Shown here piece by piece: positions 1 to 29,876 of a stretch of DNA of 34,465 nucleotides (the stretch's first letter is position 1; every line of letters begins with the position of its first letter). The stretch is from an uncultured Verrucomicrobiales bacterium. Its GTDB lineage: Bacteria; Verrucomicrobiota; Verrucomicrobiia; Verrucomicrobiales; Verrucomicrobiaceae. The stretch is taken from the NCBI GenBank assembly GCA_963976915.1, contig CAXBNA010000040.1, forward strand, positions 1 to 34,465, given 5' to 3'. The position numbers and the translations under genes were made by a program. Under the pieces are notes generated by a model. The model worked only from the letters and a program-made list of their open reading frames with translations. It made no database searches and had not been told where the DNA came from.

Positions 1-1431
1 GACGGAGTTCAGTCCGTAATTTGAGAACGAGGCTCGCGTCCTGTCTTGTGCCATTGCGGCAACGGAAATGATGTTGGGACAGTCGTACGATGCCGGGTAG
101 GCAGGTTGGCTGTCGGTATCCTGTCCGGCGTTGCCCGCAGCAGCGATGAACAGAAAACCCAAGTCATGGCCTTCTTCAATCTTGGTCTTCAGGGATGAGC
201 TGTAGCCTCCTCCTCCCCATGAGTTGCTGGTGATGGCGACGCCCTGTGTATTGGCATAGTGCACCGCGCGAATCGCGTCCGAAGTCGAGCCACGCCCCTG
301 GTGGTCGAGAAATTTGAGCGACATCAACTGGGCGCTCCAGGCAACTCCAGCAACGCCGAGGGTGTTGTTGCCAACCGCTCCGACAGTCCCCGCGCAGTGG
401 GTGCCATGGTAATGGTCATCCGAGGGGTCATTGTCGTCAGCGACGAAATCCCAGCCATAGACGTCATCGACAAACCCATTGCCGTCATCGTCGAGACCGT
501 TGTTCTCGCGTCCAGATCCGGATTCGCCCGGGTTCAACCAGATGTTGGCCGAAAGATCTGGATGTTGAAGGTCAATGCCGGTGTCAATGATGCCCACCAC
601 AACGCTGGAAGAGTCGGTCGTTGTATCCCAAGCCGTGGGTGCACCCATATCGAACATCCCCCAGAGTTGATTGAAGTCCGCATCATCCGGGGTGGTGGCG
701 GTTGAAAAAACCAAGTAATCAGGTTCCGCTTCGAGTCCATTCGAGGACAGGCTCTCCATGGTCTGCCGCAGAACGTCCTCTTCTTGCTCGTAGACCGTTT
801 CAAAGTCGTTCGCGAGTTGGAGCAATCCGGTTTCCCCCTCAATCAACCAACTGAATCTTGGATCGTGGACGAGTGGTGCCAAGGCGACGGCACTCCCGGC
901 CTCGACGACAAGGTGGTCGGCAACCATCGATGCTTCGTGAAAGAGCACCTCGCTCCCATCGGGGTTGGTGTAGTACACCTCATCCACCCTCAGGTGCGGA
1001 TATTTGAAGGATGGGGAAACGAGGTAGCGGGTTCTCCTCAGCCACTCGACATCTTGGCGGGGCAGCTTGGGTTCGCCTTTCATGGGAACATACTTGGACA
1101 CGGTGGAACGAACCAAGCGGCTCTCCCGAAGGAGCCCTTGAATCTCCTTGGAACGTTTTTGATCACCCTTTGAGGTATGGGAAATGTTGGGATTTGCCGA
1201 GGGTTCCCGCGTCGGGACCGCCTGCACGATGGAAGGGGAGGGGGTCTCCGATGGAAGTGGATGTTCCTGCATGGAATCGGGCGCCTTTCGGAGAGCTTCG
1301 TGACGCTTCTCCAACTCGACCATTTCAGGTGTCTCCTGCGGCTGGAGCATCCAAAGGCCTCCGAGGATGGCCGCGGCAATCAGGGCGGCGCTTAGCGCCC
1401 GCTTGGGTTGGAAGGAGTATCGTGTATTCAT
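1..1431 (-). CDS. S8-family subtilisin-like serine peptidase. N-terminal part only; the C-terminus, including the catalytic Ser, runs off the left window edge.
   Basis: Translating the minus strand by hand from the ATG at 1429-1431 gives MNTRYSFQPKRALSAALIAAAILGGLWML (signal-peptide-like). Further on come the catalytic Asp motif VVGIIDTGID and the His motif DDHYHGTHCAGTVGAVGNNT (positions 361-420), then AAAGNAG and SNSWGGGG. The frame stays open to position 1. This ORF is missing from the supplied track, presumably because it is edge-truncated. Confidence 0.85.
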   Translation of the reverse strand, partial: MNTRYSFQPKRALSAALIAAAILGGLWMLQPQETPEMVELEKRHEALRKAPDSMQEHPLPSETPSPSIVQAVPTREPSANPNISHTSKGDQKRSKEIQGLLRESRLVRSTVSKYVPMKGEPKLPRQDVEWLRRTRYLVSPSFKYPHLRVDEVYYTNPDGSEVLFHEASMVADHLVVEAGSAVALAPLVHDPRFSWLIEGETGLLQLANDFETVYEQEEDVLRQTMESLSSNGLEAEPDYLVFSTATTPDDADFNQLWGMFDMGAPTAWDTTTDSSSVVVGIIDTGIDLQHPDLSANIWLNPGESGSGRENNGLDDDGNGFVDDVYGWDFVADDNDPSDDHYHGTHCAGTVGAVGNNTLGVAGVAWSAQLMSLKFLDHQGRGSTSDAIRAVHYANTQGVAITSNSWGGGGYSSSLKTKIEEGHDLGFLFIAAAGNAGQDTDSQPAYPASYDCPNIISVAAMAQDRTRASFSNYGLNSV

Positions 1432-1555
1432 CGGTTTGCTAGTTCTCACTGGTACTGGCGGATACCCCTCCGGTTCCGGGATGTAACAAACTTTGTCGAA
1501 ATCAGAGGCTTTTCGATGTGAGCCCACGCTGCACGACGGGAAATGACCTGCGTAG

Positions 1556-19620: not shown

Positions 19621-20301
19621 ATGATTGCCCTGTTTCAAGAAGCCATCGCCGCCTGCAACCTGCCGTTCACGGCACTGCTGGGCATGGTTCTATTTTATTG
19701 GTGCCTGGTGGGACTCGGTGCGTTGGATTTCGACATCGATGTCATTGACCTCGATTTTAGCGATGTCGGTGACTTGGGGGACACACCTGCCGGTCCGATC
19801 AACACGGGCGGCGCCTGGATCACCCTGGGAGGTGCGATTGGTTTCAACAGGGTGCCCATCGTCGTCTGGGCCACCTTTCTGGCGCTCTTCCTGTGGGCGG
19901 GGGCGATGCTGCTCAATCACACCTTCAATCCCACCAAGGCCATGCTGATGGCCGTACTGCTCGTGATCCCCAATCTGATCGGTTCACTGCTCGTGACGCG
20001 GGTGGTGGTGTGGCCCCTTGGGAAAGTCTTCACCGCGATGGCGGAAGCCCAAAGCGAGACGGAGAAAGTGGTCGGCCGGCAAGCCCTGGTGATCAGTGCC
20101 AAGGTGGACTCCACCTACGGGCAGGTCGAGATCGCAAACTCTGGTGCCCCGGTCCGCGTGAATGCACGAATTGTGGATGGTGCTTCTGCGCTTGGCAAAG
20201 GCACGCCGGTGCGCATCACCGCAGCAGGCCCGGATGCTCAGTACTATTTCGTCGAGCCAGTGGCTGCCGCCTCTATTCCAGCGACAACCGCTTCCGACTG
20301 A
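19621..20301 (+). CDS. yqiJ: YqiJ/NfeD-like membrane protein (DUF1449-type: N-terminal TM helices plus C-terminal OB-fold). This is the usual partner of flotillin YqiK.
   Basis: 226 aa with 3-4 TM segments, an acidic loop (DFDIDVIDLDFSDVGDLGD), and a C-terminal soluble region (QALVISAKVDSTYGQVEIANSGAPVRVNARIVDG..GTPVRITAAGPDAQYYFVEP) typical of the NfeD OB-fold. It ends 22 nt before the flotillin start. Confidence 0.7.
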   Translation: MIALFQEAIAACNLPFTALLGMVLFYWCLVGLGALDFDIDVIDLDFSDVGDLGDTPAGPINTGGAWITLGGAIGFNRVPIVVWATFLALFLWAGAMLLNHTFNPTKAMLMAVLLVIPNLIGSLLVTRVVVWPLGKVFTAMAEAQSETEKVVGRQALVISAKVDSTYGQVEIANSGAPVRVNARIVDGASALGKGTPVRITAAGPDAQYYFVEPVAAASIPATTASD

Positions 20302-20323: not shown

Positions 20324-22438
20324 ATGATCGACATCCCTCCCTCTCCACTTGCCTTTTTTGGCATCTTCGAAAGCCTCGGCATGGGGCTCGTAGCCACCTT
20401 GTTCACGCTTGGCTTTGGTCTCCTGATGTTCATCTTTGCGGCGTTTGCGCGCTTTTTCCGCAAAGTGCAGCAGGGGCAAGCCATCGTGAGAAACGGGATG
20501 GGCGGTACCCGGGTGACGTTCAACGGGATGATGGTCTACCCGGTCGTTCACCAGGCCGAGTACATGGATATCTCACTCAAAAGAGTCGAGATCGAGCGCC
20601 AGGGCGCAGAAGGCCTGATCTGTCAGGACAACATTCGAGCCGACATCAAAGTGGCTTTCTTTGTCCGTGTGAACAAGACGGAGGACGATGTGCTGCGGGT
20701 GGCTCAGACCGTGGGCACTCAGCGTGCATCGAGCGTCGATACGATGCGCACCCTGTTTGACGCCAAGTTTTCCGAGGCACTCAAAACGGTCGGCAAGCGT
20801 TTTGACTTCGTGCAGCTCTACAATGAGCGGGATCATTTCAAGGACGCGATCCTGAAGGTGATCGGCACCGACCTCAACGGCTTCACGCTGGACGACTGTG
20901 CCATCGACTTTCTGGAACAGACGGCGGTTGAGAATCTGGATCCGGACAACATTCTGGATGCGGAAGGGATCAAGAAAATCACCGAACTGACAGCTTCCCA
21001 AGCGAAGCTGTCGAACAACATCCAGCGGGACAAGGAGAAGGTCATCAAGAAGCAGGATGTGGAGGCCCGCGAGGCGATCCTCGAGCTGGAGCGCCAACTT
21101 TCCGAGACGGAAGCCAAGCAACTCCGCGATGTGGAGTCGGTCCAAGCGCGCGAACAAGCGGAGACGATCAAGGTGAAGGAAGAGGAGCGCATGAAGTCCG
21201 AGCGGGCACGCATCGCGACGGACGAAGACCTGGCTGTGGCGACGGAGAATATGGAGCGCCAGGTACTCGTGGCGCAGCGCAACAAGGAGCGCACAGACGC
21301 CATCGAGGTCGAGCGCGTTGAGCGGGATCGGATGCTGGAGCAGATCGAACGCGAGCGCGCCACGACGCTCAAGAGCATCGAGAAGGACAAGGCGGTCGAG
21401 ATCGAGCAAAAGAACATTCAGGAAGTCATCAAGGAGCGTGTGGCTCTGGAGAAGACCGTGGTGATCGAGCAGCAGAAGATCAAAGACACGGAGGCCTTCG
21501 CCACGGCGGATCGCGAGAAGCAGGTGGCTGTGACCTTGGCGGAAAAATCCGCTCAAGAAGTGGTCATTCAGAAGATCAAGGAGGCGGAAGCGCAGAAGCA
21601 GGCCGCGCAGTTCAAGGCGGAAGAGGACGCCTTCAATCAAACGAAGGCGGCGGAAGCCTCGAAGCAAGCTGCCGAACTGAGAGCGCAGGAGATGATCACG
21701 CTGGCGGAAGCTCGTCAGGATGCGGCGGCACGCGAATCGCAGGCCGAGAAACTCATGGCGGAAGCGGTGACGGCTCAAGCGGCAGCCCAGGGCCTGGGTC
21801 AGGCTCAGGTGCTCGTCGCCAATGCGGATGCCTCGCAGAAGCAGGGGCATGTCGATGCGGAGATTCTCCAGCTCAAGCTGGCGGCCGAAGCGGATGGCAT
21901 CCAGAAAAAGGCGGAAGCGATGAAGGTCCTCGAAGAGGCCGGGCGCGAGCACGAAGAGTTCAAGCTCCAGCTCGACAAGGAGAAAGAGATCGCCATCAAG
22001 CAGATCGACATCCAGAAGGACATCGCCACGCAGCAGGCCATCGTGCTCGGCGAGGCGCTCAAGAGTGCCAAGATCGAGATTGTGGGAGGCGAGAGCCAGT
22101 TCTTCGACAAGATCACTCAGGCGATTGGAAACGGTCGTGCGGTGGATCGTTTAGTCGCCAACAGCGAGGTGCTCAGCGATGTGAAGGAAACCTTCTTCAA
22201 TGGAGATCCCGATTACTTCAAAGGGCAGTTTCGCGGGCTGATGGACCAGTTCAGCTTCTCGACTGAGGACCTCAAAAACCTCACGGTTTCCGCCGTGCTG
22301 GGCAAGATGATGGGCCTCAATCCTGATGCCGGTCTCATGAGCAAGCTCCAGGGCATGATGGGCGCGGCCAACCGCTTCGGTCTGGGTGACAAGCCAGCCG
22401 ACGCATTGATCGCGGCCGTTGCCAAAGGGAAGAAGTGA
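20324..22438 (+). CDS. yqiK: Flotillin-family SPFH/Band-7 protein (YqiK-like), long form with an extended E/A/K-rich coiled coil.
   Basis: 704 aa. N-terminal TM region, then an SPFH domain: AIVRNGMGGTRVTFNGMMVYPVVHQAEYMDISLKRVEIER...ADIKVAFFVRVNKTEDDVLRVAQTVG. This aligns by eye to E. coli YqiK (AFVRTGLGGQKVVMSGGAIVMPIFH...LKLEVSR...VDVVVAFFVRVKP). A long EA-repeat (flotillin) region follows. Start set to the ATG at 20324 (MIDIPP). Confidence 0.9.
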   Translation: MIDIPPSPLAFFGIFESLGMGLVATLFTLGFGLLMFIFAAFARFFRKVQQGQAIVRNGMGGTRVTFNGMMVYPVVHQAEYMDISLKRVEIERQGAEGLICQDNIRADIKVAFFVRVNKTEDDVLRVAQTVGTQRASSVDTMRTLFDAKFSEALKTVGKRFDFVQLYNERDHFKDAILKVIGTDLNGFTLDDCAIDFLEQTAVENLDPDNILDAEGIKKITELTASQAKLSNNIQRDKEKVIKKQDVEAREAILELERQLSETEAKQLRDVESVQAREQAETIKVKEEERMKSERARIATDEDLAVATENMERQVLVAQRNKERTDAIEVERVERDRMLEQIERERATTLKSIEKDKAVEIEQKNIQEVIKERVALEKTVVIEQQKIKDTEAFATADREKQVAVTLAEKSAQEVVIQKIKEAEAQKQAAQFKAEEDAFNQTKAAEASKQAAELRAQEMITLAEARQDAAARESQAEKLMAEAVTAQAAAQGLGQAQVLVANADASQKQGHVDAEILQLKLAAEADGIQKKAEAMKVLEEAGREHEEFKLQLDKEKEIAIKQIDIQKDIATQQAIVLGEALKSAKIEIVGGESQFFDKITQAIGNGRAVDRLVANSEVLSDVKETFFNGDPDYFKGQFRGLMDQFSFSTEDLKNLTVSAVLGKMMGLNPDAGLMSKLQGMMGAANRFGLGDKPADALIAAVAKGKK

Positions 22439-22510
22439 CCTGAGCCATTCCTGACGTCCTGTTCTGATTCCGACCTGACTTCTCGGGTATCGGGATCGGG
22501 ACGAGGATGA

Positions 22511-25500
22511 ATGAGGAACCCGAATCCGATGTCCGATACCCCGCCATCCGCCCAACTCGAAGCCGGTGCTTACGAGGTCATCCGCAAGCGCCTCGATGCG
22601 CAGGGCGAGGATCTGCGTTCGCGGCTGGATCAGCTCAACGAGGCGCGGAAGTCGATCTTCGGCGGGGTGGAGACGCAGCTGCTCTCCACGGCGCGGCTGA
22701 CGACGGAGCACAACTGCGTGCCGCGTGACATGGCGACGATTGGGGCCAAGCGGTTCGTGTTTGGCTACAATGTCACGTTGGGGCTGAAGAGTCACCTTGC
22801 GGCGGAGGATGTTTTTTCGACCTACGACTACGATCCCTCGGACCACAGCTTCCACGCCAACAAGGACGGCTTGCTGGAGGACAAGCGTTTTGTCGAGGAC
22901 TTTGACTACCTCTACAAGTACTACAAGAACGCCTTCTTCCTGCGGTTTCATCGCAGCGGGCATGCGGTGTATTTCGTCTTCCAAGTCGGGCGGGATGTGG
23001 GCGAGGTGAAGGCCTTTAAGTGGCTGCTGGACAAAGATGCAGGGACGCTGCGCTACGAAGGCAATCGCTTCGATCATGAGATCGCCATGCCGGATCCACA
23101 CGAGTTTGTGTGGCGAAAGGCGACGCATGACATGTATCGCCACGGCACGTATCCGCATGTGTCCATCGAGGATCGTGTGTTTGTGGAGACGGTGGGCGGG
23201 GATCTGACGGTGAAGGTGGAGGACAACACGGCCTCGGGTGCCGGGATCTACTCCGAGCCGGTGGAGAACGGAGACCAGATCCTCGACGATGCGCAGATCC
23301 AATACGCGATTGTTGGCAATCTGATTCTACTGAAGGTGCTGCCCTACCAGGAGAAGCAGTGGCGGCATCTGGTCTTCAATGAACGCACGCAGGACGTGGT
23401 GAGGATCGACGCCCTCGAGGAGTCCTGCCAGCTTTTGCCTGATGATCATGGCATTGTGTTTCCGCGCGGCTACGTGTTGCAAACCGGCGGAATGAAGGTG
23501 CTGGACACCGGGCTGCCCGAGATGCAGTTCGAGCGAAAGGTGACCTCGGCCAATGGGGAGGACACGCTCTATGTCTTCCATCACATCGAGACGGGCACCT
23601 ACCTCTTGCTCTCCTACAATTTGGTGGAGCAGGAGATGGCAGCGCCGACGATCAGCCATGGCTTTGCGATGTTTCCGAATGGTGAGCTGATCGTTCTGAA
23701 TGCCGAGGAAGAGGCGCGGAAGCATCACTCGATTCAAGTCTGGCAAACACCGTTTGTCGCGGAGCAGCAGGCGGTCGATGAACATCGCGACAGCTTGTTG
23801 GGCAAGCTCGGGAATGCGGAGATCGTGCGCTGCATGGCGGAGTGCCGTGGCATCCTGACCTTGCTGGGGAAAGAAGACAGCTACTCGGGATTGTACGTGG
23901 AGCTGGTCCGTCAAGCGGGCGACATCGCCGACACGTATTTCTGGCTGGACAAGGCGGAAGCCCATGGCCTGCGGGGCACGCTGACGAAGATCAAGGACGC
24001 TGCAGAAGCGGCGCTGGGTGAGTTTGAAAAGGTGCGTCGTCTCCGGGCGGCGGCCAAGACGGAGGTCGCATCATTGACGGAGGCCGCGAACAAGGCGGTG
24101 CGTGAGGCCGAGAGCGCGAGCTTTGATGACGTGCAGAGTTTTGTGAAGTCGCTCGCCACCTTGCGTGAGCTTCGCGGCCGGATCATCGCTGCCCAGGAGA
24201 TCCGGTACATCGATGAAGAAGCGCTGAAGGCGTTGGATGCAAAGGTGGCGGAAGCGGCGGAACTGGTGGGCGGTCGTTGCACGGAGTTTTTGCTGCTGCC
24301 TGAGGCGCTGGCACCCTACGATCAGGCCGTTACCAAGCAGCGGGCGGCTTTGGAGAAAGTGGCCAAGGTCACGGAGGCGGAGGAACTGGACGCGCAACTG
24401 CGGTCAACGAGTGAGGAACTGGAACTCCTGATCAGCGTGGTGAGTTCTCTCAAAATCCGTGATGCGACCGAGACGACTCGGATCACGGAAAGCATCTCCG
24501 GCCAGTTTGCGCAGCTCAATCAGGTGCGCTCTCGGGTGAAGGCGCGGCGTGATGAGTTGGCGCAGACGGAGGGTGAGTCTGAGTTTTACGCGCAGCTCAA
24601 TTTGCTGAAGCAGGTGGTGATCAATCAGGTCGAACTCTGCGATACGGCAGAGAAATGCGATGATGCCCTGACGCGGACGCTGGTGCGGATCGAGGAACTG
24701 GAGGGACGCTTTGGAGACTTTGAGGGATTTGCGGAGGAACTGATTCGTCGACGTGAGGAAACGCAATCGGCGTTTGATGCACGCCGACAGCAACTCGTCG
24801 AGACGCGGAATCGCCGCACTCAGGCTCTGGTCCAGGCGGCGGACCGGGTGCTGGCGAGCATTCGCAATCGTCTGAACACTCTGGCCACGCCGGAGGAGGT
24901 GCACTCGTATTTGGCCTCGGCTGCGATGGCGGCGAAGGCGCGGGATTTGATCGCCGATCTTCGGGACCTTGGCGACCCGGTGCGTGCGGATGAGATTCAG
25001 ACACGGCTGAAGACCCTGAGCGAGGGAGCGGTGAAGCAGATTCGCGACAAGGCGGATCTGTTTGTGGAAGGCGGCGACGTCATCAAGCTCGGGCCTCATG
25101 CCTTTTCAGTGAATCGGCAACCGCTGGATCTGACGCTGGTGCAACGGGAAGGGGCGTTGTTTTTCCATCTCACTGGAACGCGCTATTCGGAAGCAGTCCA
25201 GGATGAGGTGCTGGAGCAGCTGCGCCCGGTGTGGCCTTTGGAATCCAGTGCGGAGTCGCCGGGGGTCTATCGCGGCGAGTATCTTGCTCATATTTGGGTG
25301 GCGCATCTGGCGACCCAAGGGCAGGAGGCCTTGGACGCTTTTGTGGCGCAGGATGTCGAGGCGAGGCAGGGTGTGATTCGGGATTTCATGGCGGAGCGGT
25401 TTGCCGAAGGCTACACGAAAGGCGTTCATGATCATGATGCGGCCCGCATCGCTCTGCCTCTGGCGGAGCTTCGCGGGCGATTGGGACGCCTTCGTCACGC

Positions 25501-27664
25501 GCCTGTGGTTCGTGGCTGGGCATTGCTGCTTTGGAAACTGGTTCCCGAGGGCCCCAAGAAGAACGCGATGGCTGCGCGGTTGCAGGGGCAGGGAAGCCGG
25601 TCTCTGGTTTTTGGGGTGGCGGCCCATTCCGACGCAGGTGATCCGCGATTGCGGGCATTGCTCGAACGGGTTGTGGCCGATGCGCAGGTTTCGATGCCGG
25701 AGGAGGTCTCGCTGGCCGTGGTGGCTGCCTGTCTCACCGACGAATTGCAGGGACTCACCAGCAAGCATTCCGAACTGCCTCTGACGCGGTCTGCGGAGGC
25801 CTCGGAGCTTGCGCGAAGCTTTGGGAAGTTGCTGACCGCGAAACGGGCGGCGACGGAGTTTCATGAACTGCGTCAGCGCTTAGAAGAAGATCCCGTGGCG
25901 GAGTTTGAGCTGATTTTGGATTGGCTCGACGCGGCTCATCCCGAGGCGGGCGAAAGCATTCGCTCCGAGGCTGCGGGTCTGCTCATTTATGGAGAAGTCT
26001 CGGCTCATGGTGTGGAGGAGGTCGTGACTCAGGTCGAGATTGAAGGTCTTGTGGGCGCCCATTCGCAGATCGAGGGTGGAAAGCTCCGGCTGGACTACCA
26101 CGAGTTTCAGTCGCGTCTGCAGCATCATGAGCGGGAGATTGTTCCTCAGTTCCGGGCGATGCAGGATCGGAAGCATGCGCTGATTCAGAAACGCAGGGCG
26201 GAGCTGAGGTTGGAAGAGTTTCGTCCCGGGATGCTGAGTTCGTTCGTGCGAAATCGGCTCATCGATCAGGTCTATCTGCCGATCATCGGAGCGAATTTGG
26301 CAAAGCAACTCGGAGGGGTGGGGGCGGATACGCGCACGGACCGGATGGGCATGTTGATGCTGATTTCACCACCAGGATACGGGAAGACGACGTTGATCGA
26401 GTATGTGGCGAATCGCCTGGGCATGGCGATGGTGAAGATCAATGGGCCGGCCATCGGGCATCAGGTCACCTCGCTAGATCCGGCCGAAGCTCCCAACGCA
26501 AGTGCACGTCAGGAAATCGAGAAGCTCAATCTGGCCTTCGAGATGGGCGACAACGTGATGATCTACCTGGATGACATCCAGCACTGCAATGCTGAGCTTC
26601 TTCAGAAATTCATCCCGCTCTGCGATGGACAGCGCCGCATTGAGGGGGTGTTTCAGGGCGATGCCCGGACCTATGATCTTCGGGGCCGGAAGGTGGCTGT
26701 CGTGATGGCGGGGAACCCGTATACCGAGGTCGGCGGAAAATTCCAAGTGCCAGACATGCTGGCCAACCGAGCAGATACTTACAATCTGGGCGACATCCTC
26801 GGTGGTCACGACCATGACTTCAAGGCGAGCTACATTGAGAACTGCCTGACGAGCAATCGCTCACTTTCACGGATCGCAGCTCGCAGTCACAAGGACACAT
26901 TGGCGGTGATGAAAATCGCAGAGACAGGAAATCGCGAGGGCATTGAGTTTGAGGCCAATCACCAGGCCGACGAGATGGAGGAAGCCATCGCGGTTATGGG
27001 GCATCTGTTGCGCGTTCGGGAGGTCATTTTGCGAGTGAATCAGGAGTACATCCGTTCCGCAGCCACTGAGGAGGCGTTCCGCACAGAGCCGGCATTCAAG
27101 CTTCAGGGGTCCTACCGCAACATGAATCGACTCGCGGAAAAGGTGCAGCCACTGATGACGGCAGACGAGATCGAATCGTTGATCGAAGACCACTATCGCA
27201 GCGAGTCACAGACGCTGAGCAAAGCCTCGGAAGCCAACCTTCTGAAGTGGAAAGAACTGACCGGAAAGCTCTCTGAACCTGAAGCGGCGCGATGGGGCGA
27301 CATTCGCAAGACCTTCAGCCGGAATCTTCTCACTGGCGGTGGCGGAGACAATGATCCAGTGACGCGGATCGGCGGGTTCATGAATGCGTTTACGGTCGGG
27401 CTTGAGCGGATCGAGTCCACCCTCGAGAAAGCGCGAATGGATAGGGCTGCTCCAGCCACGCTCGCGGACGTCACGGTGGAGAAACTGGAGTCGATCATCG
27501 CGAGCCTGCGGGCAGTGCCAGTCAATGTGGAGATCAAGGTGCAGCCGGTGGAGCAGAGCTTGGGTCCAGCAGGTCCTGCCAACGATGGGCTTCCTGTCGA
27601 AGTCGAGTCCGGGGTGGTTCAGCCGGTTGACCCCAAGGTCACGCCCTCAAAGAAGAAAAAGTGA
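22511..27664 (+). CDS. Giant (1717 aa) multidomain protein with a MoxR/AAA_5-type P-loop ATPase module near the C-terminus. The rest of the protein cannot be assigned to a family.
   Basis: Continuous ORF. The ATG at 22511 is preceded by gaggatga (SD-like). Walker A MLISPPGYGKTTLIEY (GYGKTT = 26375-26392, ~aa 1289). Walker B NVMIYLDDIQHC (DD = 26570-26575). Sensor-1 region KVAVVMAGNPYTE, then QVPDMLANRADTYNL (MoxR-like NP...LPEA.LDRF pattern). N-terminal ~470 aa look globular and aromatic-rich. Residues ~480-900 are alpha-helical, EARL-rich and coiled-coil-like. The C-terminus ends in a Lys tail, PSKKKK. No TM helices are evident. Confidence 0.85.
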   Translation: MRNPNPMSDTPPSAQLEAGAYEVIRKRLDAQGEDLRSRLDQLNEARKSIFGGVETQLLSTARLTTEHNCVPRDMATIGAKRFVFGYNVTLGLKSHLAAEDVFSTYDYDPSDHSFHANKDGLLEDKRFVEDFDYLYKYYKNAFFLRFHRSGHAVYFVFQVGRDVGEVKAFKWLLDKDAGTLRYEGNRFDHEIAMPDPHEFVWRKATHDMYRHGTYPHVSIEDRVFVETVGGDLTVKVEDNTASGAGIYSEPVENGDQILDDAQIQYAIVGNLILLKVLPYQEKQWRHLVFNERTQDVVRIDALEESCQLLPDDHGIVFPRGYVLQTGGMKVLDTGLPEMQFERKVTSANGEDTLYVFHHIETGTYLLLSYNLVEQEMAAPTISHGFAMFPNGELIVLNAEEEARKHHSIQVWQTPFVAEQQAVDEHRDSLLGKLGNAEIVRCMAECRGILTLLGKEDSYSGLYVELVRQAGDIADTYFWLDKAEAHGLRGTLTKIKDAAEAALGEFEKVRRLRAAAKTEVASLTEAANKAVREAESASFDDVQSFVKSLATLRELRGRIIAAQEIRYIDEEALKALDAKVAEAAELVGGRCTEFLLLPEALAPYDQAVTKQRAALEKVAKVTEAEELDAQLRSTSEELELLISVVSSLKIRDATETTRITESISGQFAQLNQVRSRVKARRDELAQTEGESEFYAQLNLLKQVVINQVELCDTAEKCDDALTRTLVRIEELEGRFGDFEGFAEELIRRREETQSAFDARRQQLVETRNRRTQALVQAADRVLASIRNRLNTLATPEEVHSYLASAAMAAKARDLIADLRDLGDPVRADEIQTRLKTLSEGAVKQIRDKADLFVEGGDVIKLGPHAFSVNRQPLDLTLVQREGALFFHLTGTRYSEAVQDEVLEQLRPVWPLESSAESPGVYRGEYLAHIWVAHLATQGQEALDAFVAQDVEARQGVIRDFMAERFAEGYTKGVHDHDAARIALPLAELRGRLGRLRHAPVVRGWALLLWKLVPEGPKKNAMAARLQGQGSRSLVFGVAAHSDAGDPRLRALLERVVADAQVSMPEEVSLAVVAACLTDELQGLTSKHSELPLTRSAEASELARSFGKLLTAKRAATEFHELRQRLEEDPVAEFELILDWLDAAHPEAGESIRSEAAGLLIYGEVSAHGVEEVVTQVEIEGLVGAHSQIEGGKLRLDYHEFQSRLQHHEREIVPQFRAMQDRKHALIQKRRAELRLEEFRPGMLSSFVRNRLIDQVYLPIIGANLAKQLGGVGADTRTDRMGMLMLISPPGYGKTTLIEYVANRLGMAMVKINGPAIGHQVTSLDPAEAPNASARQEIEKLNLAFEMGDNVMIYLDDIQHCNAELLQKFIPLCDGQRRIEGVFQGDARTYDLRGRKVAVVMAGNPYTEVGGKFQVPDMLANRADTYNLGDILGGHDHDFKASYIENCLTSNRSLSRIAARSHKDTLAVMKIAETGNREGIEFEANHQADEMEEAIAVMGHLLRVREVILRVNQEYIRSAATEEAFRTEPAFKLQGSYRNMNRLAEKVQPLMTADEIESLIEDHYRSESQTLSKASEANLLKWKELTGKLSEPEAARWGDIRKTFSRNLLTGGGGDNDPVTRIGGFMNAFTVGLERIESTLEKARMDRAAPATLADVTVEKLESIIASLRAVPVNVEIKVQPVEQSLGPAGPANDGLPVEVESGVVQPVDPKVTPSKKKK

Positions 27665-27735: not shown

Positions 27736-28479
27736 ATGAGAATTGTGCTCCTGATCGGCCTCCTCGTGCTTCCAATCCTCGCTGAGGCTCAGGTGGAGAC
27801 GGCGCATCACCGCGCCGTTTACAAGGAAATCAACGACCGCGAAGAATCGTTTCGAAAGGTGACGGGAACGTTCGAGGATGAGCCGACCGTTTTTGCGCTG
27901 ACGGGTTGGTTTGACGGGCGGGAGCTGAAGAAAATCGTGGCTCGGTCTGGCGATGACGGCGGGGGCTTTGACGAGTACTATTTTGAGAACGAGCGACCAC
28001 TCTTCGTTTTCAGCACTTACGAAAAAGGGGCGACGGGCGAGCGCGTGGAAAATCGACTGTACTTCAAAGATGGGTCGATCTTCAAGTGGCTGACCACGGA
28101 CAAGGCCGTCGGTGCCCTTCATTCAGAAGACTATCAATCCGAGACCGAGCGGCTGAATGCAAACTGCGCCGCCTTTGTGGCAGCGTTGACGGGGAAGCCT
28201 GTCCCCAAGGTGACGTCCAAAGTCACCTTGGGTGTTTTTCTTGGGATCGAGGAAGGCGATTACTTTCACTGGATGATGCGGTCTGCGGGTGGCGAGGAGA
28301 CGTCCTTCTTCATTCTTCATCCAGATCCAGCCGTGGAGCGGGTTCTCGATGACCCAGACACATTTTTCGGCAGAACCTGCAAGGTGACGTGGAAGACATC
28401 CAAACAAAACATTCCTGAAGCTGCCGGCACCATGGAGCTGGATCAAATCTTGAGCGTCGAGTGGTCGACGGAGAAGTAG
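27736..28479 (+). CDS. Secreted hypothetical protein (247 aa) with an N-terminal signal peptide.
   Basis: MRIVLLIGLLVLPILAEAQ signal peptide. Protein-like composition. 72 nt downstream of the giant ATPase gene on the same strand. GTGAGG lies 3 nt before the ATG. Confidence 0.6.
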   Translation: MRIVLLIGLLVLPILAEAQVETAHHRAVYKEINDREESFRKVTGTFEDEPTVFALTGWFDGRELKKIVARSGDDGGGFDEYYFENERPLFVFSTYEKGATGERVENRLYFKDGSIFKWLTTDKAVGALHSEDYQSETERLNANCAAFVAALTGKPVPKVTSKVTLGVFLGIEEGDYFHWMMRSAGGEETSFFILHPDPAVERVLDDPDTFFGRTCKVTWKTSKQNIPEAAGTMELDQILSVEWSTEK

Positions 28480-28762
28480 CGCCGCGTTCGAGTTTGAACC
28501 AATCTGACACAGTCATGAGGAGCCAAAAACAAAACAACCGGTCGCCACGGCCATTCAAAAACCAGTCCTCTGGACGTGATTGGTCAGGCAACAGGGAAGG
28601 GGGAGGGTTCATTCCAGGCGCCAAAAAGACTCGGCCTGTAAAGAAGTTGGACCCTCCGAAGCCCTCCGAGCGTGGTCAGAATTCCGACGGGGCTTGTGCG
28701 GAGAGCTAGGCGATTCGTGATAGAGGTGGCATGGCTTGGCGTTCGAAGTCCACCCCCTCTTC

Positions 28763-29461
28763 ATGAACCCCGTTGCTGCCATCTTTGCCCTCCTGCTGGC
28801 CTCGTCTTGGACTCAAGCCGGGGAGGTTCCCGTGGGTGATCCTGACCTCCCGCATCCTTTGGATCTGAGCTTCGTGGAGAGCTTGGTCGCGGCCTCACCC
28901 TTCACCCGGACCGTGAGTCTGGAAGACTCATTTCAACTGACTGGGATTGCCTTCTTTGACGGGCATCCGGTCGCTACGATTCTGAACCGGGAGACCCAGG
29001 AACGATTTGTGGTCTCTGAAGAACCGAACGCTCAGGGTTGGACCCTCGTGGCAGCGACCACAGGCGCGAACATTGGAAGCTCAAGGGTGGAGATGCGGGT
29101 TGGCACTGAGGCGCTGACCTTGCACTACGGTGGGCAGCAGTTGTCGCCCGGACCTGATGGCAAGGCTGGATCGAAGAAGATGTATGCCTCATCGAAAAAG
29201 TCTGGCGGCAAGACGCATCCCTCTTCGTTTCTTGGAGATGGAGGACGGGAACGGTACGAGTCCCTCTCATCCGAGGGACGGAGCCACTTCAAGGAGCTGG
29301 TCCGGGCGCATATGGAAAAGCACCCGGAACTCAGTCCTGAACAGTCTGCGGACTACGCCCGAAAGGTTTTTGCGAAGATTCAGAGCGCGGATGTCTCCAA
29401 TTCCGGGGATGGCCCAGCACCTTCCAAGGCATCGAAACCCCCGAAGAAGAGGCAGGCGTAG
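28763..29461 (+). CDS. Secreted hypothetical protein (~232 aa) with a signal peptide and a Lys/Ser-rich low-complexity C-terminal half.
   Basis: Start set to ATG 28763 (MNPVAAIFALLLASSWTQAGE). The track ORF starts at 28736. The C-terminal part (KKMYASSKKSGGKTHPSS...PSKASKPPKKRQA) is basic and disordered. Confidence 0.5.
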   Translation: MNPVAAIFALLLASSWTQAGEVPVGDPDLPHPLDLSFVESLVAASPFTRTVSLEDSFQLTGIAFFDGHPVATILNRETQERFVVSEEPNAQGWTLVAATTGANIGSSRVEMRVGTEALTLHYGGQQLSPGPDGKAGSKKMYASSKKSGGKTHPSSFLGDGGRERYESLSSEGRSHFKELVRAHMEKHPELSPEQSADYARKVFAKIQSADVSNSGDGPAPSKASKPPKKRQA

Positions 29462-29549
29462 AGGCGTGTGTCCGGATCCCGGGGCAGTTTCTCTCGCACG
29501 CTCCATCTCTCCACGATCTCGGCTCGAATTCTGCTTTCCTCCACTCGCC

Positions 29550-29876
29550 ATGTACCCTGACACCATTCCTTGGAAGGTTCTCTCCGCCACCGCCAGCGTT
29601 GGCGCATTCACTCCCGAGTGGGAACTCGATCAGGTGCCTCTGTCATCGGAAGAAACCCGGAGTTTCTCCATCGTTATCGACTTCGCGACGTCTTTTGAAG
29701 GCGTGCCAGTCATCCACCTCGGTCTGACGGGCTTTGATGCGGATCAGCGTGACAGCACTCGATTGAGTCTTTCTGCGGTGGACATCACGCCGCATGGATT
29801 CACCGCCGTGGTTTCCACCTGGGCCACGACGAGGCTCTACTCGGTGGAGTTCAACTGGCTGGCGATCGGGGCCTAG
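29550..29876 (+). CDS. Small H-type lectin domain protein (108 aa).
   Basis: MYPDTIPWKVLSATASVGAFTPEWELDQVPLSSEETRSFSIVIDFATSFEGVPVIHLGLTGFDADQRDSTRLSLSAVDITPHGFTAVVSTWATTRLYSVEFNWLAIGA. The pattern F..PP.V...L...D.....R....A..IT..GF......W.D..LY.....W.AIG matches the H-type lectin (PF09458) consensus. Confidence 0.6.
   Translation: MYPDTIPWKVLSATASVGAFTPEWELDQVPLSSEETRSFSIVIDFATSFEGVPVIHLGLTGFDADQRDSTRLSLSAVDITPHGFTAVVSTWATTRLYSVEFNWLAIGA

Follow-up and report, generated by a model that had tools for sequence, protein, structure and literature searches.

A conserved giant AAA+ ATPase encoded beside a flotillin and an NfeD-like protein: a candidate remodeller of bacterial membrane scaffolds

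Proteins of the SPFH family build membrane cages, one of which, HflK/C, surrounds the AAA+ protease FtsH. In bacteria, flotillins and PspA have been studied widely for their part in membrane organisation and repair, and we know of no dedicated energy-consuming remodeller of either. According to a 2025 review (PMC7619361), bacteria appear to lack a Vps4-like ATPase, and none is known for bacterial PspA. Comparative genomics has described a "novel AAA+ ATPase with beta-propeller and coiled coil" together with its YqiJ-flotillin-ATPase operon, for which roles in sub-membrane assembly and dynamics were suggested, and mentions an "abbreviated operon" (Ravi et al., mSystems 2024, PMC11237479). The operon studied here lies in a stretch of 34,465 nucleotides from an uncultured Verrucomicrobiales bacterium, which we call the window. 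It corresponds to that abbreviated operon; domain order, partners and partner order all match. The operon had thus already been described computationally, in a preprint in 2020 and in the paper of 2024, and what the window contributes is a member and anatomical detail, not a discovery.

Table 1. Positions in the window of the three genes of the operon and of the domains and motifs of the ATPase
Feature	Position	Strand	Basis or remark
Gene 1, YqiJ/YuaF (NfeD-like) multi-pass membrane protein, 226 aa	19621..20301	+	Pfam YqiJ_N
Gene 2, flotillin-family (YqiK-like) SPFH protein	20324..22438	+	Band_7; hhalign to YqiK
Gene 3, DUF3686-AAA+ protein, 1717 aa	22511..27664	+	All peptides quoted in the initial annotation present
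DUF3686 domain, aa 34-477	22610..23941	+	Pfam PF12458, E 5.5e-175
Helical-bundle (spectrin-like) rod, aa 429-850	23795..25060	+	Includes DUF7902
DUF7902, aa 598-682	24302-24556	+	Inside helical rod
Small five-stranded beta domain, aa 857-895	25079..25195	+	AF2 and conservation
All-alpha domain, aa ~900-1235	25208..26215	+	AF2 pLDDT above 90
"GVHDHD" motif of all-alpha domain	25421-25438	+	
AAA+ alpha/beta core, aa ~1240-1432	26228..26806	+	
Walker A SPPGYGKTT, aa 1286-1294	26366-26392	+	
Walker B YLDDIQH, aa 1351-1357	26558-26584	+	DD variant
Sensor 1 N1402 and candidate Arg finger R1420	within 26705-26776	+	
AAA+ lid and conserved helical extension, aa ~1433-1610	26807..27340	+	AF2 helices
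Candidate sensor-2 motif LQGSYRN, aa 1531-1537	27101-27121	+	
Variable C-terminal tail, aa ~1611-1717, ends KKKK	27341..27661	+	

The features of the operon are listed in Table 1. The ORF of gene 3 is as given in the initial annotation, whose domain boundaries also agree roughly with those obtained from Pfam and AF2. A database protein (P0001) is 100% identical to the product, yet has 1711 residues and begins at Met7, so that the real start of the gene may be at position 22529. The protein lacks a transmembrane segment (maximum KD19 hydropathy of 1.15) and is soluble. It is genuine and conserved, and belongs to a widespread bacterial family of giant ATPases, which comprises 718 clusters at 50% identity and full-length members of 1500-2036 aa. 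A lone AAA+ module placed C-terminally of more than 1200 non-ATPase residues had been singled out as unusual; the layout is indeed as described, but it is no oddity of this genome, the architecture being fixed across this family. Scanning the 1717-aa protein against NCBIfam gave no family above cutoff, and our literature search returned no experimental work on the flotillin-operon DUF3686-AAA+ ATPase.

The main functional clue, absent from the initial annotation, is the conserved YqiJ/NfeD-flotillin-AAA operon. The product of gene 1 contains strong hydrophobic segments, matches Pfam YqiJ_N (E 5.5e-5, 23.8 bits, cutoff 23) and is detected by BLASTP with E. coli YqiJ (E 0.002). Gene 2, whose ORF is open from position 20162, probably starts at Met55 and encodes an N-terminal transmembrane segment, a Band_7 domain and a long coiled coil rich in E, A and K. 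Although the whole protein matched nothing in Pfam, NCBIfam or the PDB, its N-terminal 260 residues scanned alone matched Band_7 (E 5.7e-10, 40 bits), and its family profile (A3) aligned with E. coli YqiK over 385 columns (hhalign probability 100%, E 8.8e-42). A search with this profile gave only a weak match to QmcA. Both partners thus carry transmembrane segments, whereas the ATPase has no hydrophobic segment.

Comparison of the window's three proteins with 80 related loci by tblastn revealed the gene order YqiJ-like, flotillin, ATPase on one strand. In 57 of the 59 loci that have at least 3.2 kb of upstream DNA, across six phyla, the ATPase gene is directly preceded by the flotillin gene, which runs in the same direction; a homologue of gene 1 occupies the same position in 53 of the 80 loci. 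In loci L061 and L062 the ATPase has no adjacent flotillin. Long antisense shadow ORFs displace the flotillin ORF in seven loci, where the gene is found by tblastn. No fourth gene family is common to more than 8 of the 80 loci. In Bacteroidota, CesT_Tir_1 (E 4e-54) is encoded directly upstream in six loci and PspA_IM30 (E 4e-41) in eight, so that the operon there also specifies PspA and a CesT-like chaperone; PLD-like genes are present in five loci. PspA is encoded neither in the window nor in most loci, so a role directed at PspA could be general only if the gene for PspA lay elsewhere in those genomes.

The variable neighbours bear on the idea that the protein would sense invasion as part of a membrane-based system of anti-phage defence or conflict (abortive infection), whose flotillin, PspA and PLD components would act on the membrane. 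An HTH-S24 regulator, a PLD-family gene or a phage CII-like gene in some loci would fit such a system, as would weak PADLOC matches to mad8 (E 4.5e-4, 17.8 bits) and LmuB (E 6e-3). These matches, however, do not rise above noise and are limited to generic AAA or coiled-coil segments, and no defence gene recurs in the neighbourhood of different loci. In addition, the window context consists of housekeeping genes (PFOR-like, PHO4, SbtA-like, RsgA and methyltransferases), and identity across the loci drops in step with taxonomy, as expected for vertical inheritance. We consider a defence function very unlikely.

The same context bears on the database name of the protein, "DNA repair ATPase", and on the Pfam description of DUF3686 as "ATPase involved in DNA repair". 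Besides these names, what speaks for DNA repair is a set of weak matches to the P-loop of RuvB (E 1e-3 to 1e-5, about 40 residues). The RuvB likeness is confined to the Walker A region, which is also all that is covered by the NCBIfam RuvB models (20-23 bits against cutoffs of 282-299). Moreover, no DNA-binding or nuclease domain was found in the 1717-aa protein, the neighbouring genes encode membrane proteins and not repair proteins, and a literature search gave no paper tying the DUF3686 family to DNA repair. These results agree with the earlier remark that the label lacks support, and a role in repair appears highly improbable. Because the gene adjoins those of a flotillin and an NfeD-like partner, membrane scaffolds are the most likely target, not DNA repair. 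The database name is misleading, and "Flotillin-associated AAA+ ATPase" would be a better one.

The AAA+ module appears most similar to MoxR-type ATPases. Its core matches AAA_5 (26.2 bits, cutoff 22) and, over the same stretch, PF00004 (31.4 bits), and the best structural matches are to the MoxR family (NorQ, CbbQ, RavA; Pfam AAA_3/AAA_5), NorQ and CbbQ being the nearest. In common with this family, the protein has a single AAA+ module with a beta-hairpin predicted ahead of sensor 1, and a sensor-1 Asn followed by an insertion and then an L-x-(D/N)-R motif. Members of the classic AAA clade (PF00004: FtsH, p97, Vps4) have a second region of homology with paired Arg fingers right after sensor 1, which the window's protein lacks: N1402 is followed by a 10-residue insertion and one conserved Arg (R1420), as compared with NRPDVLDPALLRPGRF in FtsH. 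Classic-clade structures ranked lower than MoxR in the structural comparison. Alignments by hhalign of the AAA segment with E. coli RavA, YehL, RuvB, ClpX, Lon, YifB and FtsH covered only 15-41 columns surrounding the P-loop (for RavA and YehL the P-loop alone, probability 17-26%), and so this method assigns no clade. PDB sequence searches with the whole protein and with the family profile likewise gave matches only at the level of Walker A (RuvB, p97, Rpt3, NVL).

The apparent likeness to MoxR raises the question of whether the protein is a chaperone that matures a specific client or inserts cofactors into it, as do NorQ, CbbQ and RavA. The VWA/MIDAS partner typical of MoxR is absent from the 1717-aa protein and from the neighbouring window ORFs that were scanned, and in the 80 loci no genes but those of the ATPase, the flotillin and the YqiJ-like protein recur in more than eight. 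In a MoxR-type chaperone of this sort the long N-terminus would take the place of the VWA adaptor; we judge this explanation unlikely.

The single P-loop proposed for the protein is indeed the only one (one Walker A), and the module looks catalytically intact from its motifs. The family motifs SPPGYGKTT, DDIQH, GNP, NRAD and GSYRN are all present and are conserved at 95% or more in 58-66 homologues, which had been chosen via the N-terminal domain alone. Walker A, Walker B, sensor 1, R1420 and GSYR1536 each reach at least 95%, and within the candidate sensor 2, residues Q1532, G1533, S1534, Y1535 and R1536 are invariant among 58 sequences. Conservation of the Walker and sensor residues had been set beforehand as a check, and with this outcome the reading of the protein as a degenerate pseudo-ATPase fails. 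The Walker B acidic pair, D1354 and D1355, is invariant across the family and departs from the canonical hhhhDE of MoxR. With DD in place of DE, hydrolysis could be slow, or the module could serve as a switch and not as a motor.

The DD pair is one of the points that would fit a mainly structural tether, in which the rod and beta domain would connect flotillin microdomains with some other structure of the cell, and the AAA+ module, instead of working as a motor, would switch oligomerisation under nucleotide control. About 420 residues of spectrin-like bundles and the variability of the final ~110 residues would be in keeping with this. Yet the AAA+ module and lid are by far the most conserved part of the protein (81 positions at 95% or more), and the conserved candidates for sensor 1, Arg finger and sensor 2 serve hydrolysis and not mere binding. 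A tether of this kind seems rather improbable to us.

The initial annotation had noted some 280 residues following the module. Of these, the part up to residue ~1610 is conserved lid and helical extension, and only the last ~110 residues are variable. Pfam gave nothing at E<=1 for aa 1441-1717. The tail has a pLDDT below 50 over most of its length and a mean column conservation of 0.16. The Lys tail exists in the window's protein but is not a family feature, as only 18 of 120 close homologues and 9 of 66 distant ones end in a Lys/Arg tail; it is lineage noise. This lack of conservation also led us to reject the tail as an anchor to membrane or DNA.

The PF12458 match spans the whole profile (positions 1-448 of 448). 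For this region AF2 predicts, with a pLDDT of about 80-93, an N-terminal helix (aa 15-50) followed by about 28 strands (aa 56-412), in agreement with the globular N-terminus, rich in predicted beta turns, proposed from the sequence. The domain was termed a beta-propeller in PMC11237479; self-hhalign found no repeats in it. The helical or coiled-coil stretch that had been noted next corresponds to the ~420 aa of bundles that include DUF7902 and separate the two beta domains. As had been suggested, the first two thirds of the protein lack an assigned function: they match DUF families only, and PDB relatives were not found.

Residues 857-1235, which the initial annotation left undescribed, comprise two domains, the first a small beta domain, the second all-alpha and modelled with confidence. 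In the former, G861 is invariant and F865 and T890 are conserved at 90% or more. The latter contains a conserved cluster formed by E915, R921, G971, H973, D974, D976 and R1001. A Pfam scan of aa 880-1277 gave nothing at E<=1, and no PDB fold match was found for the all-alpha domain. An HD phosphohydrolase, suggested for this domain by its "HDHD" motif, was dropped because both Pfam and fold support are absent. The conserved E/H/D/D residues hint at a further, unrecognised activity that would lie outside the flotillin-remodeller model.

We consider it somewhat more probable than not that the protein is the ATPase subunit of a conserved membrane module formed with the YqiJ/NfeD-like protein and the YqiK-like flotillin, and that it carries out ATP-driven remodelling. 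The best reading, in our view, would be an AAA+ protein that forms a ring in the cytoplasm and remodels the flotillin/PspA assemblies of the membrane. The AAA+ modules would form a ring, probably a hexamer, at the cytoplasmic face of the membrane, and the beta domain and helical arms would bind the cytoplasmic SPFH/coiled-coil cage of the flotillin, of which the NfeD-like protein would be a partner. Under membrane stress or during repair, ATP hydrolysis may then drive the assembly, remodelling or disassembly of flotillin and/or PspA polymers or, alternatively, the extraction of clients held in them. A bolder proposal, which we put forward only tentatively and regard as doubtful, is that the family is the missing ATP-driven machine that remodels or disassembles bacterial membrane scaffolds, a functional analogue of Vps4 but no homologue of it, acting on flotillin cages and on co-encoded PspA/ESCRT-III polymers, with E915, H973, D974 and D976 possibly providing a second, metal-dependent activity. 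As the ATPase gene keeps its place beside flotillin/NfeD in at least six phyla, and in Bacteroidota is linked to PspA as well, the protein is the obvious candidate for a dedicated remodeller of flotillin or PspA, and the question of whether flotillin and PspA are remodelled in this way is now directly testable by genetics, imaging and cryo-EM.

Among known systems, FtsH-HflK/C is likewise an AAA+ ATPase coupled functionally and genomically to a membrane scaffold of the SPFH family. FtsH, however, is a membrane-anchored classic-clade AAA protein with a zinc protease domain and HflK/C as its partner, whereas the window's protein is soluble, non-classic and without a recognised protease domain, and its SPFH partner is of the flotillin/YqiK type. 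With Vps4-ESCRT-III (CdvC-CdvB in archaea), the Bacteroidota loci share the pairing of an AAA+ ATPase with a polymer of the ESCRT-III superfamily, PspA; the likeness to Vps4 would lie in polymer remodelling, which is hypothesised. From the system of PMC11237479 there is no substantive difference, its optional CesT-PspA and PLD additions being reproduced among the loci studied here. What the present analysis adds to that description is the conservation at the level of motifs, the DD Walker B, the small beta domain, the all-alpha domain with its conserved GxHDxD cluster, and NorQ/CbbQ as the nearest structural neighbours.

The ORF on the plus strand at 22511-27664 (1717 aa) reported in the initial annotation is genuine, and all peptides quoted there are present in its product; its length and its thousands of homologues show that it is not a chance feature. 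A database protein that is 100% identical starts six codons downstream, at Met7 (1711 aa). A Pfam scan identified DUF3686, DUF7902 and a single P-loop region (aa ~1282-1405); the latter, initially described as AAA_5-type, scored slightly higher against AAA (PF00004, 31.4 bits) than against AAA_5 (26.2 bits). Two AlphaFold2 models based on 45-sequence alignments (aa 1-1000, mean pLDDT 80.7; aa 880-1717, mean pLDDT 77.7) gave the layout listed in the table, in which a beta-hairpin separates the Walker B strand from the sensor-1 strand of the AAA+ core. Overall, the original description was confirmed with corrections, and its interpretation held in part only.

The initial annotation had proposed a check for a degenerate pseudo-ATPase. 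Homologues were collected with the N-terminal 480 aa only, and hence were not selected by their ATPase motifs. This search of 1.84 billion cluster representatives yielded 718 clusters at E<=1e-3; full-length family members are 1500-2036 aa long and nearly all have an N-terminal DUF3686. In alignments of 58-66 of these homologues, which share 30-47% identity with the query, conservation was by far the highest in the AAA+ and lid module, where 81 positions are conserved at >=95%. Because the Walker, sensor and candidate arginine finger motifs are conserved in homologues chosen in this way, the pseudo-ATPase reading is not borne out; the module is conserved and apparently competent, and the protein is soluble. 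Walker B contains DD in the whole family, as opposed to the usual DE, which may point to slow or regulated hydrolysis. The DD motif would also fit a protein acting mainly as a structural tether with a nucleotide switch; the conserved hydrolysis-related residues do not, and we consider such a role unlikely. The lysine tail, initially presented as a feature of the protein, was found in only 18/120 close and 9/66 distant homologues, and no conservation is seen over the final ~110 aa. The tail is lineage noise.

Sequence methods matched nothing beyond the P-loop region, neither in phmmer searches of the PDB nor in family-profile searches. RuvB models of NCBIfam reached 20-23 bits against cutoffs near 290, and hhalign aligned only 15-41 columns with E. 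coli RavA, YehL, RuvB, ClpX, Lon, YifB and FtsH. As for the label "DNA repair ATPase", which the initial annotation had rightly called generic, its backing is the name only, and a function in DNA repair is very improbable. The all-alpha domain preceding the AAA+ core had no Pfam match and no PDB fold match. Its polar cluster comprises the invariant residues E915, G971, H973 and D976 together with R921, D974 and R1001, each conserved at >=90%, and could bind a metal, be catalytic or serve for docking.

The key clue, which the initial annotation had not used, is the gene neighbourhood. Two genes lie directly upstream on the same strand, encoding a YqiJ-like membrane protein and a flotillin-like protein. 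The family profile of the latter matched E. coli flotillin YqiK (hhalign probability 100%, E 8.8e-42), and Band_7 was detected (E 5.7e-10) when the N-terminal 260 aa were scanned alone. With the whole protein as query, neither Pfam, NCBIfam nor the PDB gave a match, likely because HMMER's composition-bias filter responds to the long E/A/K coiled coil, a pitfall for flotillin annotation in general. The strand opposite the flotillin and ATPase genes contains long shadow ORFs, the largest of 459 aa, and in related loci longest-ORF gene calling let similar shadows displace the true flotillin ORF.

Scanning 185,579 species genomes revealed 593 or more relatives of the ATPase, and 80 loci were retrieved from Verrucomicrobiota, Planctomycetota, Bacteroidota, Desulfobacterales, Omnitrophota and Kiritimatiellota. 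According to tblastn and ORF clustering, the order YqiJ-like, flotillin, ATPase on one strand is kept in 57 of the 59 loci having >=3.2 kb of upstream DNA. The ATPase gene is genomically coupled to flotillin and its NfeD-like (YqiJ-like) partner, a coupling we term obligate. In the exceptions, L061 and L062, both partner genes may have been lost or may lie elsewhere. In some loci the flotillin and ATPase genes are separated by a further ORF.

Coupling to other genes is facultative. PspA_IM30 (E 4e-41) is encoded upstream of the YqiJ-like gene in eight Bacteroidota loci, preceded in six of these by CesT_Tir_1 (E 4e-54). In seven loci a gene upstream is transcribed divergently, and in the one representative scanned (L063) it encodes an HTH_3 plus Peptidase_S24 regulator. 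Five loci (L037, L044, L045, L056, L063) contain PLD-family (PLDc_2) genes. No fourth gene family was common to more than eight of the 80 loci. A classical MoxR-VWA chaperone is improbable, as there is no VWA partner.

The operon in the window lacks CesT, PspA, HTH-S24 and PLD additions, and the rest of the window's genes, among them the ORFs downstream of the operon, show no conservation alongside it in related loci. The neighbours are housekeeping genes: a PFOR-like gene, PHO4 and SbtA-like transporters, RsgA, methyltransferases and a sulfatase. These surroundings, PADLOC matches at noise level and sequence identity that tracks taxonomy all argue against an anti-phage system, which we regard as slightly less probable still than the chaperone. 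The PFOR-like ORF, presumably longer than typical PFOR/NifJ proteins, may represent an atypical fusion or an extended form. For the RsgA ORF, either the start is over-called or the N-terminal extension is long. A terminator-like hairpin (28204-28232) lies inside the first downstream ORF.

Features of the ATPase, its operon and related loci
Feature	Location	Strand	Basis or remark
Helix	aa 15-50		AlphaFold2
DUF3686	aa 34-477		Pfam, E 5.5e-175
Globular beta-rich domain	aa 56-412		AlphaFold2, ~28 strands
20-58-aa helices, short loops	aa 429-850		AlphaFold2
DUF7902	aa 598-682		Pfam, E 1e-23
Five-stranded beta domain, small	aa 857-895		AlphaFold2
All-alpha domain	aa ~900-1235; 25208-26215		AlphaFold2, confident, pLDDT >90
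GVHDHD (all-alpha domain)	25421-25438		
AAA+ alpha/beta core	aa ~1240-1432		AlphaFold2
Walker A, SPPGYGKTT	aa 1286-1294		invariant or nearly so
Walker B, YLDDIQH	aa 1350-1358 (DDIQH 1354-1358); 26558-26584		invariant across family
Sensor 1, GNP	N1402		invariant or nearly so
Candidate arginine finger, PDMLANRAD	R1420		invariant or nearly so
Candidate sensor 2, LQGSYRN	R1536		invariant or nearly so
Helical lid and extension	to aa ~1610		AlphaFold2
C-terminal tail	after aa ~1610		AlphaFold2, low confidence
Multi-pass membrane protein	19621-20301	+	YqiJ_N; weak match to E. coli YqiJ
Flotillin-like protein	20162/20324-22438	+	TM, SPFH, coiled coil
Shadow ORFs	20573-21952, 22151-23302, 23327-23965, 24404-25099, 25106-25864	-	
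PFOR-like ORF, 1606 aa	4642-9462	-	POR_N, PFOR_II, POR, Fer4, TPP_enzyme_C (pyruvate:ferredoxin oxidoreductase)
RsgA GTPase ORF, 490 aa	16221-17693	-	RsgA domain from aa 205 only
247-aa protein	27736-28479	+	probably secreted; no family match
241-aa ORF	28736-29461	+	hydrophobic N-terminus, possible signal peptide
ORF overlapping the 241-aa ORF	29130-29876	+	C-terminal H-type lectin domain, E 6.8e-18
ATPase without adjacent flotillin or YqiJ-like gene	L061:7412-12274, L062:7373-12247		Bacteroidota; >7 kb upstream DNA
PspA-type loci	L050, L051, L063 (e.g. L063:2358-3480), L064, L069, L071, L077, L045		Bacteroidota
IS200-like Y1 transposase between flotillin and ATPase genes	L058:6629-7096		
Intervening ORFs, 409 and 318 aa	L007:6141-7367, L068:6414-7367		no Pfam match

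Exactly this operon was described by Ravi et al. (mSystems 2024, preprint 2020; PMC11237479), who also recorded the CesT/Tir-PspA and PLD additions and widely distributed "abbreviated operons" without PspA; our locus analysis independently reproduced their description. The ATPase typifies a large family that has been described computationally and is experimentally untouched, and is not a new kind of system. Our literature search found no experimental study of the family and no paper mentioning DUF3686 or PF12458. According to a 2025 review (PMC7619361), a Vps4-like ATPase appears to be absent in bacteria, and the roles of PspA's band-7 partners are still to be determined.

We propose a ring of AAA+ modules on the cytoplasmic side of the membrane, with the beta domain and the spectrin-like arms docking on the SPFH/coiled-coil assembly of flotillin. 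ATP hydrolysis would then serve to assemble, remodel or dismantle flotillin and/or PspA polymers, or to extract their clients, in membrane stress. That the ATPase acts as a membrane-face ring on flotillin/PspA assemblies is, stated in this general form, somewhat better than an even guess; any specific substrate is less likely. The ATPase is worth following up as the candidate for what powers flotillin/PspA dynamics in bacteria. Conceptual analogues of the proposed role are FtsH, which resides inside the HflK/C cage, and Vps4, which acts on ESCRT-III.
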